Source of the DNA: Promethearchaeota archaeon
Lineage (GTDB): Archaea; Asgardarchaeota; Lokiarchaeia; Sigyniarchaeales; SOKP01
Direction of reading: 5' to 3'
Assembly (NCBI GenBank): GCA_048940645.1
Contig: JBHLOI010000010.1
Location: forward strand, 1 to 64,000
Length of the DNA: 64,000 nt
Notes under the pieces: model-generated
What the model was told of the DNA's origin: nothing
Seen by the model: the letters and a program-made list of their open reading frames with translations, nothing else
Database searches by the model: none
Shown: piece by piece, positions 9,146 to 14,990 of the stretch
Layout of the letters: every line of letters begins with the position of its first letter
How positions within the stretch are numbered: the first letter of the stretch is position 1
Position numbers and translations under genes: made by a program

Positions 9146-10018
9146 ATGAAGACACAAGAAAATTTATGGGACATTCCATATCATAAAGCCTTTTTTAAAA
9201 CTAGTCATAATTCTTATGAGCATTCTATAAGAGAACAATTAAATAAAGGGTTACGAGGTCTTGAATATGATATTCATAGTAATAAAATTCAAGAACTCAA
9301 TGACTTTGAAGTTTACCTTTTTAAAGATTATTATAATGTAATGCTTAATGTTGATGGAAATCCAAGTGATTACTTATTTTCAAATTGGCTAAAAATTTTA
9401 AGAGAATGGTCTAATAAACAAGATAGCGAACATGCACCAATAACTCTTTTTATAGAATTAAAAGATAAAATTATTGATTCGGATAACACATCAGATGAAT
9501 TATATGGAATTGGCAAATTAAATGAAATTATAATCAATTCTATTCCCTTAAATAAATTATACACTTATAAAAACTTCAAGGAAAGCAATTTTAACTGGCC
9601 TACTGTCAGTGATCTAAAAGGAAGGATTATAATCGTTCTTACTAGCTATTGGGGTGGTTCTTGGGTTTCAAACGAGGGTGGTTTTGAATCCAGATTAGAA
9701 TACCTATCAAGAAGTTTAGAAGGTAAAGATGATATATGCTTTGTCTCTTGGATTGAAGATGATAAAGGAGATCAAGCCTTATTTGTAAAAGAAAATACTC
9801 ACTTTTGGAAATGTAGCATCGATTATAGCAGAAAAAACTATAATGTTATATATTCAAAACAAAGATTAACTAGAGTTGATTATGATAAAATTATAGATGG
9901 TAAGCATGTAGAAACATATTATAACAAAAATTATATAACTGGATACCGATGTAATTTTCCATCTACAGATATGTGGAATACCAAACTTTACAACAATTCA
10001 TTCCCATGGTCGATTTGA
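9146..10018 (+). CDS. PI-PLC-like phosphodiesterase (TIM-barrel) family protein
   Basis: SHNSY...QLNKGLRGLEYDIH, HAPITLFIELKD and WPTVSDLKGRII. Confidence 0.65.
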   Translation: MKTQENLWDIPYHKAFFKTSHNSYEHSIREQLNKGLRGLEYDIHSNKIQELNDFEVYLFKDYYNVMLNVDGNPSDYLFSNWLKILREWSNKQDSEHAPITLFIELKDKIIDSDNTSDELYGIGKLNEIIINSIPLNKLYTYKNFKESNFNWPTVSDLKGRIIIVLTSYWGGSWVSNEGGFESRLEYLSRSLEGKDDICFVSWIEDDKGDQALFVKENTHFWKCSIDYSRKNYNVIYSKQRLTRVDYDKIIDGKHVETYYNKNYITGYRCNFPSTDMWNTKLYNNSFPWSI

Positions 10019-10055
10019 TTAAAAAAGTGAAAAATATTGACTCGCTTACAATAAA

Positions 10056-10089
10056 TTTATAAATTTTCTTTACATTTTTGTTAATTAGA
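10056..10089 (+). promoter_or_regulatory. TATA box plus conserved downstream element, repeat copy 1
   Basis: TTTATAAA at 10056-10063 and TTACATTTTTGTTAATTAGA at 10070-10089, duplicated with identical spacing at 10448-10481. Confidence 0.65.
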
Positions 10090-10118
10090 ATTGAAATTAA
10101 AAAAAGGGTGAACAAAAT

Positions 10119-10346
10119 ATTAAAATAATTGCCCATGCTATTGAGGGATATTCAAAATTTCTACATCCTGATTATCTTTCTGCAGCAACAATACCAACAG
10201 TTGACTACTTTAGTGTCGATTTTACAGATAATTTTTTGTCAGTTTCAGAAGTTTGGATTATTGCTGGAATTATTATATGTCTAGTTTTAACTGTTTATTT
10301 CATCAATAACTATATTTCCTCAAAAAAAAATTCGCGGTCAATTTAG
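10119..10346 (+). CDS. Unannotated 75-aa membrane-anchored peptide, putative RiPP precursor 1 (ATT start)
   Basis: (M)KIIAHAIEGYSKFLHPDYLSAATIPTVDYFSVDFTDNFLSVSEVWIIAGIIICLVLTVYFINNYISSKKNSRSI*. SD-like GGGTGA lies upstream and there is an in-frame TAA at 10098. Many differences from copy 2 are synonymous. Confidence 0.8.
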   Translation: MKIIAHAIEGYSKFLHPDYLSAATIPTVDYFSVDFTDNFLSVSEVWIIAGIIICLVLTVYFINNYISSKKNSRSI

Positions 10347-10447
10347 CGATATTTATACCTATCGTCAGAAATGAATATCAAAATTAATTGATTGAATTTT
10401 AAATTTGAAAATCGAATAATAAGAAATTCTGAATAGAACACTAAATG

Positions 10448-10481
10448 TTTATAAATGCCGGTTACATTCTTGTTAATTAGA
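10448..10481 (+). promoter_or_regulatory. TATA box plus conserved downstream element, repeat copy 2
   Basis: TTTATAAA at 10448-10455 and TTACATTCTTGTTAATTAGA at 10462-10481. The TATA box starts 63 nt before ATT in both copies. Confidence 0.65.
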
Positions 10482-10510
10482 TATTTAATCAAAATAAGGG
10501 GAAAAATAAA

Positions 10511-10720
10511 ATTAAAATAATTGCTCACGCTATTGAGGGGTATTCATACTTTCTACATCCTGATTATCTTTCTGCATCAACAGTTAAAGTTGATTTTACA
10601 GATAATCTTTTATCATATTCTGAGATTATGATTATTGCTGCACTTATAATCGTTCTAATTCTAGCTATTTATTTCATTAATAACTATATCTCATCAAAAA
10701 AAAGATTGAATAAACAATAA
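10511..10720 (+). CDS. Unannotated 69-aa membrane-anchored peptide, putative RiPP precursor 2 (ATT start)
   Basis: (M)KIIAHAIEGYSYFLHPDYLSASTVKVDFTDNLLSYSEIMIIAALIIVLILAIYFINNYISSKKRLNKQ*. SD-like AAGGGGA lies upstream and there is an in-frame TAG at 10478. Confidence 0.8.
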   Translation: MKIIAHAIEGYSYFLHPDYLSASTVKVDFTDNLLSYSEIMIIAALIIVLILAIYFINNYISSKKRLNKQ

Positions 10721-10784
10721 TTATTATTCTTTCTAAGTCATTTTGCTTTGAGAGAAAATTAGGATAGAGATAAATCAATTAAGT

Positions 10785-12173
10785 TTGGTGGTTTTTAAAA
10801 TTCATCTTTCTATATTAGAACCAGATTATATTGAAAAACGCAATCAACAGTACTTATTTATTTGGAAAGAATTACCCTATTGGATGGTTGTTGATGAAGA
10901 GGCTTATAGAGTTATAAGATTAGCGGATGGTTCTCGTTCTCTAAAAGAAATAGCAAAACTTGTTTATAGCAATGACCAATTTGATAGAGAAAAAATAACT
11001 GAGCTAAATAGTTTTGTTAATGCCCTAAAAGATTTAAATCTATTAAAAATGCCTAATAAAAAAAAAGAAAATAAGGTAAAATCAAATTCTAAACCTATTC
11101 TTGAAAATATTACTATTAATATTACTAATAAATGTAATTTAAGATGTAAGCATTGTTATATTAGCGAATTTAACAAAGAAAATAATTTTCCCGTAAGCAG
11201 CTTTAAGAACTTTGTAAATACAGCAAAAAATTATAAATATACTTCTAGAAATCTAAATTTTGCGATTTTAGGAGGGGAACCTCTTCTTGAAAAAGAAAAA
11301 CTTATTGAAATAGCTAAATTTGGGAAGAATATTGGTTCTGAAGTAATTGTGTCTACAAATGGTCAATTAATTAATTCTGAATTTGCCAGAAGAGCTAAAC
11401 AACATAAATTAATCGTCCAAGTATCTATAGAAGGATCTAATAAATTAGTTAATGATTTTATAAGAGGAAACGGTACATTTCAGAAAGCAGAAAAAGGAAT
11501 TAAAGAATTAGTCAGATATGGCGTCTATACTATAATTTCTATGGTAGTTCATGAGTTTAATTTTCAAGATATCGAAAAATTTTATTTTTTTGGGCGTTCT
11601 TTAAAAGTCGATGAGGTTAGATTTATACCGCTTAAAATAATGGGGCGGGGAAAATTAAACTTTAATCCAATTTTAAAGAAGGATTTACTTTTGGATATTC
11701 ATAATCTTATAAAAAAATATCCTGAATCTAAACGCTATTTTAAAAGAGATTACTATACTATAATGAAAACCTCCTGCGCTAACTCTAATCAAACACTCTA
11801 CTGCGGTACAGGCTCTAAAACTTTGTTAATAGACGCCAATGGTGAAGTATATCCATGCCCAAATCATTGTCTACCTGAATTTAAATGTGGCAATATTACC
11901 AAGAAATCTTTTGAAGATATCTGGCTTAAATCCCCCATACTTAAAAAAGTAAGATCAACTTATAATATAAATAAAATAAATAATGAATGTAGTAATTGTA
12001 TTGTGAAGTATTGGTGTGCGGGTGGTTGTAGGGGTGAAGCCTATGAAAATTTTAGGATTATGACATCAAAAGCTATTGGATGTGAAGATATTCGCAATAG
12101 TATTATCGAGACTTTTTGGATTTTATCTAAAGAAGATTATACACAATATTCCAAGCCAAGAGAATACTTTTAA
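10785..12173 (+). CDS. Radical SAM/SPASM peptide maturase with N-terminal PqqD/RRE-like domain
   Basis: N-terminal beta strands plus a winged helix (DGSRSLKEIA), CNLRCKHC, GGEP, and SPASM CGTG...GEVYPC...CSNCIVKYWCAGGCR...C. Confidence 0.9.
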   Translation: MVVFKIHLSILEPDYIEKRNQQYLFIWKELPYWMVVDEEAYRVIRLADGSRSLKEIAKLVYSNDQFDREKITELNSFVNALKDLNLLKMPNKKKENKVKSNSKPILENITINITNKCNLRCKHCYISEFNKENNFPVSSFKNFVNTAKNYKYTSRNLNFAILGGEPLLEKEKLIEIAKFGKNIGSEVIVSTNGQLINSEFARRAKQHKLIVQVSIEGSNKLVNDFIRGNGTFQKAEKGIKELVRYGVYTIISMVVHEFNFQDIEKFYFFGRSLKVDEVRFIPLKIMGRGKLNFNPILKKDLLLDIHNLIKKYPESKRYFKRDYYTIMKTSCANSNQTLYCGTGSKTLLIDANGEVYPCPNHCLPEFKCGNITKKSFEDIWLKSPILKKVRSTYNINKINNECSNCIVKYWCAGGCRGEAYENFRIMTSKAIGCEDIRNSIIETFWILSKEDYTQYSKPREYF

Positions 12174-12271
12174 TCTTAACTTTTATTATTATTGTTTTTT
12201 TAAATGAAATTCTTTTAATTTCATATAAATGTTTTTATATATTTTTCAGAATTTATTCTTATCGAGAGTTT

Positions 12272-12580
12272 ATGAGTAATTCAAACGATGATTGTCGTGA
12301 GGATGTTTGGGAGTACTATGATAAAATAAAGGATGCGCTTGACGGATTATTTGAGGTTTTAAGTATAGCATTAGACCCAAATAGTGTCTATTATCAATGT
12401 GGGGTGGATAATCTAAAAGCATTAAAGGGTGGATTGATAGAATTACTAATGAAAGATTATGATACTTTAGACCTACAAGATACTTTACGAAAGATTGAAT
12501 TCGATGTAAAAAAGTCTTTATTTTTTGAAAACACTAAGAAAAAAACACAAAAAAATCAAGATGAAGAAAAAGCCATATAA
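12272..12580 (+). CDS. Hypothetical helical protein (paralog of 61790..62056)
   Basis: IKDALDGLFEVLSIALDPNSVYYQCGVDNLKAL aligns with IKECIQALYEIFKIALPNNNIYHQMGQDNIEAL. Confidence 0.75.
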   Translation: MSNSNDDCREDVWEYYDKIKDALDGLFEVLSIALDPNSVYYQCGVDNLKALKGGLIELLMKDYDTLDLQDTLRKIEFDVKKSLFFENTKKKTQKNQDEEKAI

Positions 12581-12690
12581 GTTTATAATTGGTTCCTTTT
12601 TTTCATATAATAAATATTACAGGCACTAGTTTAAGAATAATGTAAAGTTTCATTTCAATTCGTTTTAATGTATTAGTAAAACTAAAAATT

Positions 12691-12852
12691 TTAATGTGTA
12701 AAGAGTTTTGAGCCCAATTTAAGACATTTATCAAGATTTTCTTTTATATTCGGTTTTTCAAGAGATTTAAAAATTTCATCTGGATTTAAACACGATTGAA
12801 TAGATTCATTTTTAAATCCTATTTCAATAACTCTTCCTTTCTTCTCTTTCAT
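12691..12852 (-). CDS. Unannotated 53-aa hypothetical protein
   Basis: MKEKKGRVIEIGFKNESIQSCLNPDEIFKSLEKPNIKENLDKCLKLGSKLFTH*, preceded by SD-like GAGAGTGAG. Confidence 0.5.
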   Translation of the reverse strand: MKEKKGRVIEIGFKNESIQSCLNPDEIFKSLEKPNIKENLDKCLKLGSKLFTH

Positions 12853-13137
12853 TTCTATTAACTCACTCTCATAATAATAATCAAAATTTTATTAAAGATA
12901 GTACCAAATAATAAATTTAAATATCCTTTTAATAATCTATTTAAAAATGGAAAGATTTTAGAAACTTTTATAACTATTTTGTGGATTTTTCTTCTTTCAA
13001 ATAATATATTAATTTATTTATATTTTATAGAAAATGTTAATTATAGTTCAAAATATATACTTCTGAAAATCCCAATCATGTCTTCTGCCAACCAATAAGA
13101 CTTTTAAATGCCTAAAATGAAAATATAATGAAATTTT

Positions 13138-14358
13138 TTAGGCATCATCTTTAAAAGCTAAAAATAGGATTATTGCTATGGATAATGGAATTATAATTCC
13201 CATAATCAATGTAGCTTTTACTCCTAATAAATCGAATACCAATCCTGAGATTGGAGCACCTACCGCGATTCCAGCAACCACTAACGCATAAAAGGTTCCT
13301 GTCGCAATTCCACGATTATATTCTTCTGTATTATTTCTAATTATTCCAGCTGAAGTAGGGAATACCATTCCATGGCCGATTCCAAAGACTAACATACCTA
13401 GAATTGGAAAGGGAGATAGTATTGAAATCATTAAAATTAAAAATCCAATAGAAGCAAATATTAATCCAGTAGACATTATTTTCTTATGACCAATTTTATC
13501 ACCAAATGCCCCTGAAGGATAATGAACTAAAATTGATAAAAACACTAAGACACTAAATATAATTCCGATTTGACCAGAAGTATAACCAGCATTTTCTAAC
13601 ATAATAGAATAAGTGGCTGTAATAATGCCAAGATTGATGTTTAGCGTTAATATACCTAGATATGGAGATATCATTTTCTTTGAGAAAAGTGTTTCTTTAA
13701 AAATTATAATTTCTTCCCTGAAACTTAATTTTTTTTTAGCTGGATAATATATTTTTGGTAAAACAAAAGATAAAACCGCCATAACGAATAATACTATTGA
13801 GATAATTAAAAATAAAGTCTTGTATCCGATTACTTGAGCTCCTATTCCTCCAACCATAAATCCAAAGAGAAGGGCAATCCCGAAGGAAATACCATAGAAA
13901 GCCATTCCTTTTCCACTTTTTTCTTTTGGTGTTGCGTCTGATAAATATGCCATCGTTCCTGGACCCCCAAAACCTCCACCTAATCCATGGATGATTCTAG
14001 CAAAAAGTAAAAAGTAGGGATCTTGCGCTAAGGAATATAATAAAATTGAAAAGCCATCTAACAATATACCAATCGCTATTAAAACTTTTCTTCCAATTTT
14101 GTCAACAAGTCTCCCTGCGATGATATTAGAGGGGATATGAACCATTGAATATGCCCCAACGATAAAAGTAGCAAGAATGAGTGGGGCACCTAAACTAATT
14201 GCATAAATGGAAATAATAGGAATCGCAACAGTACTATCAAAATTAACTATAAATGTTAACACAAGCACTAGGAAGAGGTGTTTTCTTCTGATTTTTAATG
14301 ATTTTTGATTATTGCTTTCTATACCTTCCTCCAAACGCATAGCCAAATATTTTATCAA
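13138..14358 (-). CDS. MFS transporter
   Basis: 12-TM pattern with motif A (GRLVDKIGRK and GAFGDKIGHK). Confidence 0.92.
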   Translation of the reverse strand: MIKYLAMRLEEGIESNNQKSLKIRRKHLFLVLVLTFIVNFDSTVAIPIISIYAISLGAPLILATFIVGAYSMVHIPSNIIAGRLVDKIGRKVLIAIGILLDGFSILLYSLAQDPYFLLFARIIHGLGGGFGGPGTMAYLSDATPKEKSGKGMAFYGISFGIALLFGFMVGGIGAQVIGYKTLFLIISIVLFVMAVLSFVLPKIYYPAKKKLSFREEIIIFKETLFSKKMISPYLGILTLNINLGIITATYSIMLENAGYTSGQIGIIFSVLVFLSILVHYPSGAFGDKIGHKKIMSTGLIFASIGFLILMISILSPFPILGMLVFGIGHGMVFPTSAGIIRNNTEEYNRGIATGTFYALVVAGIAVGAPISGLVFDLLGVKATLIMGIIIPLSIAIILFLAFKDDA

Positions 14359-14515
14359 CTAATTCTATATTTTGAATTTAATTTTATTCAAGAATTGTAA
14401 AAAATATTATGAATTAAAACTCTTAGACTAAAATATTATAAAAATTTTTTTATATTGAATTTTTGTTCTTTCAAATTAAATTTTAATAAGAATTCTATTT
14501 ACATAATTTGATATT

Positions 14516-14839
14516 ATGACGAGAATTTCGAAGAAACCCTTAGAAAAGGAAAGAAAAACAATTAGAACGATGATTGGTATGTATTGCAAAAAATTTCATG
14601 ATCCAAAAAATGAATTTTGCGAAAATTGTTTGGAACTCTTCGAATATGCTAGTGAAAGATTAGACTATTGTCGTTTTGGTGAAAATAAACCGACATGTGA
14701 GAAATGCCCAATACACTGTTATAAACCTGAAATGAGAAAAAAAATCAGGAAAATTATGCGATATGCTGGACCTCGAATGATATATACACACCCAATCATG
14801 GGTTTTCGGCATTTATTCAAAAAAATGAAAAAAATTTAA
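14516..14839 (+). CDS. YgbA/nitrous-oxide-stimulated-promoter family Cys-rich protein
   Basis: EKERKTIxxMIxMYC...CENC...RLDYC...KPTCEKCPIHCY...MRYAGPRM. Confidence 0.85.
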   Translation: MTRISKKPLEKERKTIRTMIGMYCKKFHDPKNEFCENCLELFEYASERLDYCRFGENKPTCEKCPIHCYKPEMRKKIRKIMRYAGPRMIYTHPIMGFRHLFKKMKKI

Positions 14840-14990
14840 AATCTTTAGTAGAAAAATTTCTATATTACAGATAGTTTAAGTTTTGTTATCCCTTCTTTTG
14901 CACGAAGAACTCTTCTCTAAGAAAGGGCTAAATTCGTTGTAATTCCCCCTTTACTGATTCTTGGGGTTTTATAGGTTTATTTAATCTGCT

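Follow-up and report, generated by a model that had tools for sequence, protein, structure and literature searches.

A predicted RRE-radical SAM-SPASM enzyme and two small tagged membrane proteins in a Loki contig: candidate minimal form of a cross-domain enzyme-substrate system

The enzyme gene and the two small ORFs upstream of it

The first 64,000 nucleotides of contig JBHLOI010000010.1 (assembly GCA_048940645.1, forward strand) of a Promethearchaeota archaeon (Lokiarchaeia; Sigyniarchaeales; SOKP01), referred to here as the window, contain a gene for a radical S-adenosylmethionine (SAM) enzyme with a SPASM domain and a predicted recognition element (RRE) of the kind that binds precursors of RiPPs (peptides made on ribosomes and modified after translation). 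Directly upstream lie two open reading frames (ORFs) for small membrane proteins that begin with nearly the same 22 residues, here called the tag. From the comparisons described below we consider it likely that the two ORFs and the enzyme form a self-contained enzyme-substrate cassette, the minimal archaeal form of a widespread and unnamed cross-domain system. The genes and domains concerned are the following.

10119-10346, plus strand: small membrane protein 1, 75 aa, ATT start; tag at residues 1-22, acidic linker, transmembrane (TM) helix at residues 44-62, basic tail
10511-10720, plus strand: small membrane protein 2, a paralogue of protein 1, 69 aa, ATT start; linker six residues shorter, TM helix at residues 38-56
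10785-12173, plus strand: RRE-radical SAM-SPASM enzyme, 462 aa; TTG start as listed, alternative GVG at 10788
10797-11054, plus strand: RRE-like (PqqD-like) domain, about residues 5-90, from predicted structure and Foldseek
11115-11588, plus strand: radical SAM core, residues 111-268 (PF04055, 4e-23)
11802-12083, plus strand: SPASM auxiliary-cluster domain, residues 340-433 (PF13186, 3e-11)

The two ORFs had been missed by the gene track and were picked out in an earlier reading of the DNA made without database searches (the sequence-only reading), whose description agrees with their translations. Residues 1-22 align as IKIIAHAIEGYS[K/Y]FLHPDYLSA, with a single position differing between the copies, and beyond the tag a linker of variable length leads in both to VDFTDNxLS, a single hydrophobic helix and the basic tail YFINNYISSKK. 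In the DNA alignment the copies differ by synonymous changes (GCC/GCT, CAT/CAC, GGA/GGG) and by one 18-nt in-frame gap, which accounts for the six residues missing from the linker of copy 2. Cysteine (Cys) is absent from copy 2 and occurs once in copy 1, within the TM helix. The stop codon of the second ORF and the start of the enzyme ORF at 10785 are 64 nt apart.

Judged by comparison with relatives, both ORFs are real protein-coding genes under purifying selection, because their frames are open in relatives, synonymous changes are in excess, the overlapping antisense ORFs are broken and no Rfam family matches. In Loki_b31 ('Promethearchaeota archaeon Loki_b31', same genus), the orthologous enzyme is 58% identical to that of the window, and the gene directly 5' of it encodes a peptide homologue of 72 aa, with 44-49% identity according to the method used. 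On five other contigs, with enzymes 84-88% identical to that of the window, the interval from a PI-PLC-like gene to the enzyme gene likewise contains a single peptide copy or a pair, none of them annotated by a gene caller. The reading frame is open in all eight copies of this clade, the length differences are multiples of three, and 11 of the 22 codons at the N-terminus do not vary, another 7 differ by synonymous changes alone and the other 4 alter the amino acid. The ratio of nonsynonymous to synonymous change (dN/dS) lay between 0.3 and 0.6 in pairwise comparisons, and pooling over three orthologue pairs gave 20.2 synonymous changes per 144.3 sites versus 27.8 nonsynonymous changes per 503.7 sites (Fisher p = 0.0018), so that the selection at the protein level which had been read from the synonymous changes and the 18-nt indel of the window is found again in these comparisons. 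A scan of positions 9800-10900 gave zero Rfam matches at E <= 1 and no tRNA. Two antisense ORFs on the minus strand (9963-10136 and 10343-10528), with ATG/GTG starts opposite the His6 codon, were rejected, as stops interrupt them in the related contigs L107, L108 and L111.

Upstream of each ORF, a set of short elements is kept between the copies and in relatives.

10056-10064, plus strand: TATA-like box TTTATAAAT of peptide gene 1, read directly; invariant in 8/8 clade copies
10070-10089, plus strand: conserved 20-nt block TTACATTTTTGTTAATTAGA of copy 1, between the TATA-like box and the Shine-Dalgarno-like (SD-like) site
10106-10111, plus strand: SD-like GGGTGA of copy 1, 7 nt 5' of ATT
10448-10456, plus strand: TATA-like box TTTATAAAT of peptide gene 2, read directly; kept between copies and in relatives
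10462-10481, plus strand: conserved 20-nt block TTACATTCTTGTTAATTAGA of copy 2, kept between copies and relatives
10498-10502, plus strand: SD-like GGGGA of copy 2, 8 nt 5' of ATT
First codons of the clade copies, window 10119-10121 and 10511-10513; L107:1556; L108:2195 and 2718; L109:1267; L110:234; L111:252: ATT in 7/8, GTT in 1/8

The TATA-like boxes, one per ORF as the sequence-only reading had indicated and each about 63 nt upstream, may act as promoters, and the 20-nt block, common to both window copies and all close relatives as TTACRTTYTTGTWAATTAGA, may hold the transcription start or an operator. The G-rich SD-like site is retained in all copies of the clade. Both ORFs open with ATT AAA ATA ATT, and ATG, GTG and TTG do not occur in frame between the upstream stop and either ORF. 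The orthologue of the sister lineage, Loki_b31, has ATG at the codon that is ATT in the window, and six further metagenomic relatives of the Loki_b31 type all begin with MEI[IM]AQA.

By its domains and cysteines the enzyme is a member of the radical SAM superfamily and of its SPASM subfamily. Pfam scores were well above the cut-offs for both PF04055 Radical_SAM (82.8 bits, cut-off 29.5) and PF13186 SPASM (43.9 bits, cut-off 21.5). In an alignment of 29 homologues the CxxxCxxC cysteines C117, C121 and C124 are invariant, as are C340, C358, C402, C405, C411, C415 and C433 of the SPASM domain, with C331 nearly so. For the N-terminus, Pfam's PqqD model gave no match at E <= 0.1; an AlphaFold model of residues 1-105, composed of strands followed by helices, had a predicted local distance difference test score (pLDDT) of 81.9, and Foldseek searches with it placed RREs on top, led by TbiB1 (5v1u, TM-scores 0.60/0.70; best E-value weak, 7.5e-3) and including PbtF, McbB, ThcOx, PqqD, LynD/TruD, TigE and CteB. 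The predicted fold supports the assignment of an RRE to this region, and together with the Pfam domains it agrees with the type of maturase proposed earlier. The best solved relative of the whole enzyme is the SCIFF maturase CteB (5wgg, E = 6.7e-31), aligned over residues 34-447 and thus with its N-terminal domain included; GDGT/MAS and anSME are other solved relatives.

The best NCBIfam matches, among them StsB, MftC, WgkB, anSME and DynA, all scored far below their cut-offs, which places the enzyme in no named family. The scores and cut-offs were 142.1 and 625 for StsB, 94.5 and 850 for AlbA, 95.8 and 340 for PapB, 85.9 and 425 for SCIFF, 126.7 and 265 for the mycofactocin enzyme MftC (TIGR03962), 71.7 and 381 for PqqE (TIGR02109), and 99.4 and 450 for DynA (NF041298).

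The tag and its enzyme in archaea and bacteria

Homologues of the window enzyme numbered 226 at E <= 1e-20, and scanning one genome per species yielded 72 enzyme loci from Loki, Thorarchaeota, Thermoplasmatota, Planctomycetota and other bacteria of the Planctomycetota-Verrucomicrobiota-Chlamydiota (PVC) group, Armatimonadota, Myxococcota, metagenome-assembled genomes labelled Pseudomonadota, and others. One carrier, Lentisphaerae strain WC36 (CP085689.1, locus L055), is in culture. A profile of the Loki peptides gave weak matches adjoining the enzyme in other phyla. Six-frame ORFs from the 72 loci, 0.92 million residues in all, contain the strict motif [FYLMW][FLMIVY]H..Y[VILM]SA 28 times, versus a chance expectation of about 0.06 (our own rough estimate from residue frequencies), and every occurrence was N-terminal, 13-17 residues after the initiator Met. 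With the profile refined once, 52 of the 72 loci were found to hold one tag ORF or more, nearly always on the enzyme strand and within about 2 kb of the enzyme gene (in one case within 2.7 kb). Its usual site is 22-140 nt 3' of the enzyme in bacteria and Thorarchaeota and upstream in Loki and Thermoplasmatota, while in a Myxococcota-type subset it lies about 1.8 kb upstream. Between one and five tag paralogues stand in tandem per locus and vary in their C-termini, a pattern typical of substrates, and hence the tag looks like a substrate site. The largest array, from an uncultured bacterium (L064:2199-4747), has five tandem tag paralogues after a single enzyme gene.

Two irregularities were met in this survey. 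Apparent fusions of enzyme and partner at three Polyangiaceae loci (L075, L076 and L082) were set aside as probably long stop-free frames in high-GC DNA, judged from their coordinates, and in L112:789-2137, on a long-read contig, the enzyme gene is broken across three frames, probably by assembly frameshifts and not as a pseudogene.

Membership of the family, as we define it, calls for a protein that opens with M-x-[IVL]-x-[AG]-x-x, has [FY]-x-H-x-x-Y-x-[SA]-A after a spacer of 6-9 residues, continues with a TM helix and a basic patch, and is encoded next to an orthologous radical SAM-SPASM gene. The consensus of the tag reads M-x-[IV]-x-[AG]-x-x…[FY]-x-H-x-x-Y-x-[SA]-A, and both window ORFs fit the definition, their first residue being coded by ATT and not by ATG. 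In a cross-phylum alignment of 40 sequences His16 and Tyr19 (window numbering) are the sole invariant residues and Ala22 is near-invariant; positions 1 (the initiator Met, read as Ile in the ATT rows) and 3 (hydrophobic) show conservation in 70% of the rows or more, and visual inspection gives a mainly hydrophobic position 4, a small residue at 5 and Phe or Tyr at 14. Neither the Loki-peptide alignment nor the cross-phylum tag alignment has a conserved Cys column, in keeping with the earlier observation that the conserved part lacks Cys and with the argument drawn from it against sactipeptide or ranthipeptide chemistry. Downstream of the [FY]-x-H-x-x-Y-x-[SA]-A segment there is no conservation across phyla.

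A 36-position profile searched against 1.84 billion representative proteins matched 264 clusters at E <= 1e-3; 148 of the 150 representatives listed match from their first residue onward, and the database names of the tag proteins were 'hypothetical protein' throughout. Both window ORFs match the tag profile (E = 1.7e-10 and 7.9e-10); Pfam and NCBIfam hold no family covering the tag proteins, and searches of both with the window peptides and bacterial partners returned sub-threshold noise, T2SSG excepted. No report of the pairing of enzyme and tag protein, including its pseudopilin, CPBP or membrane-anchored links, was found in the literature searched, which was incomplete, and the Asgard RiPP papers in it are unrelated. 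The description of the locus as an undescribed archaeal RiPP is not supported where it makes the system an archaeal speciality, as the pair occurs in many bacterial phyla. In a quick, unrooted tree of the enzyme the archaeal sequences form one group (Shimodaira-Hasegawa-like approximate likelihood ratio test, SH-aLRT, 95), apart from three to four bacterial groups, and the window enzyme groups with Loki_b31, three Thorarchaeota-type loci and one Thermoplasmatota locus (SH-aLRT 95-99); such a tree gives no direction of transfer between archaea and bacteria.

Tag and enzyme are tightly coupled in their occurrence, and their pairing as precursor and enzyme is supported. In the genus, the 2 of 42 genomes that have the tag (E <= 0.01) are the same two that have the enzyme, and across Asgard archaea the enzyme was found in 5 of 400 genomes (E <= 1e-80), whose seven tag ORFs (E <= 1) all adjoin it. 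Five more genomes (four bacterial and one from Thorarchaeota, 3.7-9.3 Mb, three of them complete chromosomes) have the tag only beside the enzyme. Among the contexts of randomly chosen representatives three were informative; two partners adjoin the enzyme and one (P0211) is unlinked, its assembly holding an enzyme locus elsewhere. Tag homologues independent of the radical SAM gene, the occurrence of which the sequence-only reading had set in advance as grounds for giving up its proposal, were not seen, since the tag was found only in genomes that also have the enzyme.

The proteins that carry the tag differ between the domains. Archaeal partners are about 70-86 aa long and consist of tag, acidic linker, single TM helix and basic tail, while bacterial partners have 170-390 aa, two TM helices and pseudopilin domains resembling GspG. 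Most bacterial partners place a tail 25-110 residues long between the tag and TM1, then a basic loop (+2 to +5), TM2 and a C-terminal domain, a form seen in 45 of the 60 partners scanned. PF08334 scored above its cut-off of 21 in 3 of 18 bacterial partners tested (27.2, 22.2 and 21.5 bits), and a model of the L067 partner (pLDDT 81.4), in which the first 26 residues are disordered, gave GspG and PulG as top Foldseek matches; in the ESM Atlas GspG-like proteins appeared only as leads, all below 0.9. Models of prepilin leaders or methylation motifs were absent among the NCBIfam matches of the bacterial partners (E <= 0.01; E <= 0.05). Four Myxococcota-type partners (L066:3236-4261, L100:5404-6426, L101:5393-6481 and L091:2208-3185) have lipobox-like LAAC, VGAC or GLAC sequences at the end of TM2, at which signal peptidase II could split such proteins into an archaeal-like N-terminal module and a GspG-like lipoprotein. 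The TM helix occurs family-wide, and almost every one of the 60 scanned partners has basic residues after TM1, which by the positive-inside rule, and by charge alone, would put the tag-bearing N-tail on the outer face of the membrane.

A gene for a CPBP/Rce1-like intramembrane protease (CPBP, CAAX protease and bacteriocin-processing; PF02517, 65.9 bits) lies immediately 5' of the enzyme in 32 of the 72 loci, all of them bacterial. L044:3204-4001 and 31 other bacterial loci, from Armatimonadota, Myxococcota and others, have a three-gene system of CPBP protease, enzyme and tagged GspG-like proteins. In the six archaeal loci no protease or exporter adjoins the enzyme, and the eight PF02517 genes of the window's genome are all on other contigs; the absence of a nearby peptidase, as first noted, thus holds for the window and fails for the homologous bacterial loci. 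Judged from the gene content of the loci, the system consists of one enzyme and one to five tagged membrane proteins, with a CPBP intramembrane protease in many bacteria.

The archaeal loci share no conserved neighbours, their flanks being unrelated to one another and including beta-lactamase-like, GNAT, NUDIX, short-chain dehydrogenase/reductase (SDR), BadF-type ATPase, PI-PLC-like and hyp genes. The PI-PLC-like protein of the window (9146-10018, 290 aa; PF16670, 34.5 bits) is encoded 5' of the peptide genes both in the window and in its nearest relatives and is absent at Loki_b31; its gene is probably not part of the system. In L107, L108 and L111 hypD/hypE follow directly after the enzyme gene on the opposite strand, and in the window about 2.7 kb (12200-14900) are inserted between the enzyme and the position of hypD/hypE in these relatives, with the following content.

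12272-12580: ORF of 102 aa, family-less
13138-14358, minus strand: major facilitator superfamily-like (MFS-like) membrane protein, 406 aa
14516-14839: Cys-rich ORF, 107 aa

Proposed modification and competing explanations

The conservation described above suggests that the first 22 residues of the peptides serve as both docking site and target of the adjacent enzyme, which probably modifies the invariant His/Tyr motif at the extreme N-terminus of the membrane proteins. In the cytoplasm the RRE would bind the very first residues, MKIIAHA, which probably add a beta-strand to it, whereupon the radical SAM site would abstract a hydrogen atom and modify the segment of the invariant His16 and Tyr19; the acidic N-tail would then be placed on the outer membrane face and kept there by the TM helix, while the basic C-tail stays inside. 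Since there is no conservation downstream of the tag across phyla, the site of modification should lie within the first ~22 residues, and the lack of a conserved Cys excludes thioethers as the common reaction of the family. For the same reason an intramolecular cross-link is judged most likely as the product, and one that involves His and/or Tyr is our best guess, held tentatively. Binding, chemistry, topology and membrane retention are what we infer, with binding weakly predicted: a complex of the enzyme, peptide residues 1-45, SAM and three 4Fe-4S clusters had a median interface score (ipSAE) of 0.34 (0.34, 0.48 and 0.19) versus 0.01 for the best control, with contact agreement of at least 51% and partner pLDDT of at least 39, and was graded as weak support. 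As most passes at or below 0.60 prove wrong when the pairing is not already likely, and alignments and ligands lie outside the calibration, we count this prediction as evidence neither for nor against binding of the tag by the RRE.

Likeness to known systems is of several kinds. The RRE-dependent radical SAM-SPASM maturases CteB (acting on SCIFF), AlbA, StsB, SkfB and TigE share with the window enzyme an N-terminal RRE, a CxxxCxxC core, a full SPASM domain and an adjacent substrate gene. However, enzymes of the CteB/AlbA/StsB type link Cys sulfur to carbon, whereas the window system has no conserved Cys, and their substrates are short, soluble and freed of an N-terminal leader, whereas here the conserved site runs from Met1 and is followed by a TM helix; conserved Cys donors, as in sactipeptides and ranthipeptides, are absent, and the enzyme reaches the cut-off of no named maturase. 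MftA and PqqA, the precursors of mycofactocin and PQQ, have a C-terminal Val-Tyr or E-x-x-x-Y core in contrast to the N-terminal H-x-x-Y of the tag. The HPDY of the window tag also resembles the HPEVY His-Tyr site of cytochrome oxidase, a lead at most. The nearest conceptual precedent, likened by description and not by sequence relatedness, is CrpC of Methanococcus voltae, an archaeal RRE-radical SAM-SPASM enzyme that reportedly engages its substrate via N-terminal protein domains and modifies the neighbouring protein CrpA, a Cys-rich protein that receives ranthionine thioethers (PMC13692751). Unlike CrpA, the window substrates are membrane-anchored and without conserved Cys.

For the chemistry, a resemblance to dynobactin and darobactin provides a lead, not a result. 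Their enzymes (DynA, DarE) are SPASM proteins that join aromatic side chains without Cys, and the tag has an invariant H-x-x-Y preceded at -2 by an aromatic residue. A His-Tyr N-C link is part of dynobactin (PMC10288494) and shows that a SPASM enzyme can form such a bond. The products of DynA and DarE, however, are short secreted antibiotics, mostly with Trp, and the window enzyme stays below the DynA cut-off and differs in the architecture of its substrates. GspG, the major pseudopilin of type II secretion, corresponds to the C-terminal domain of the bacterial partners only, which differ from it by their tag-bearing tail of 25-110 aa and usually two TM helices, while the window proteins lack the domain. 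From known RiPP precursors the family differs in three respects, namely the conserved site that starts at Met1, the membrane anchor and, in bacteria, the folded pseudopilin-like proteins behind the tag.

A set of observations weighs against tag modification as we propose it. A tag ORF at threshold is absent from 20 of the 72 loci, several of which have weaker variants or a nearby contig end, and the bacterial partner P0211 is unlinked to the enzyme gene of its assembly. The conserved segment could be a docking site alone, with the real substrate elsewhere, and an outward N-tail, a topology drawn from charge distribution alone, needs translocation after modification in the cytoplasm. A start at ATT, or in one relative at GTT, is unusual, for which reason protein levels may be very low. 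The fullest form of our proposal is a speculative one, doubtful as a whole: an undescribed modification, common to both domains, in which the enzyme turns the N-terminal [FY]-x-H-x-x-Y into a covalent His/Tyr cross-link on membrane proteins, with the modified tail working on the outer face, where it might, for instance, be redox-active, bind metal or signal the assembly of pseudopilin-like proteins, and with the Asgard version as a stand-alone minimal module with ATT starts.

Alternatively, the locus could encode a classical secreted RiPP or bacteriocin, in which the 22 residues are a leader, or leader and core, and a protease encoded elsewhere frees a diffusible product from the TM anchor. 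Tandem precursor paralogues are common in RiPP clusters, the CPBP gene stands directly 5' of the enzyme in 32 of 72 loci, and eight PF02517 genes on other contigs of the window's genome could supply a protease. We regard this as unlikely, as the six archaeal loci have no adjacent protease or exporter and mutually unrelated flanks, the TM helix and basic patch are conserved family-wide, conservation begins at Met1 and so leaves no separate leader, and the bacterial tag heads large folded GspG-like proteins of 170-390 aa and not short cores. The last of these points also makes the reading of the window peptides as precursors of a peptide natural product, favoured at first sight, less than clear. 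The family-wide TM helix makes membrane retention plausible, as the sequence-only reading had suggested, while the CPBP gene in many bacterial loci leaves cleavage and release a possibility.

More improbable still is a role of the tag as a membrane adaptor, which would dock the RRE and recruit the enzyme to the membrane so that another target, a lipid or another protein, is modified. The extreme N-terminus is the element most like an RRE-binding one, some SPASM enzymes act on non-peptides, with GDGT/MAS and anSME among the solved relatives, and sequence reveals no chemistry; yet the invariant His and Tyr, the near-invariant aromatic residue at -2 and the Ala at +6 exceed what a docking strand needs, one to five paralogous tags per enzyme on diverse C-terminal domains suit substrates better, and the archaeal loci have no other conserved candidate substrate gene. 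That the ATT-start ORFs are untranslated remnants, either copies in decay or a regulatory or RNA stretch that was duplicated, beside an enzyme without local substrate, would agree with their omission by gene callers and with the occurrence of a canonical start codon in 0/8 clade copies (one has GTT) and is very improbable in view of the open frames, indels in threes, synonymous excess (p = 0.0018), retained SD-like and TATA-like elements, lack of Rfam matches at E <= 1, broken antisense ORFs in relatives and the ATG of the sister-lineage orthologue.

Implications for radical SAM substrates and Asgard archaea

Taken with the bacterial loci, our results partly support the initial idea of an archaeal RiPP and suggest that it be widened to a cross-domain system for the modification of an N-terminal tag, of which the window holds the minimal form. 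The known peptides of RRE-dependent radical SAM maturases are short, exported and mostly Cys-containing. The system described here would add a new class of substrates, in which a family of enzymes, several hundred strong at least, is paired with membrane-anchored proteins whose universal features are limited to an N-terminal docking strand and the invariant H-x-x-Y. The GspG-like domains and the CPBP protease of the bacterial versions point to protein maturation rather than to antibiotic production. Since the window version comprises two proteins of ~70 aa and one enzyme and has no accessory genes, it should be a convenient system for a cross-link chemistry that is possibly new. In addition, an ATT start that persists across the whole clade under coding selection would make these genes a clean case for non-canonical initiation in Asgard archaea.

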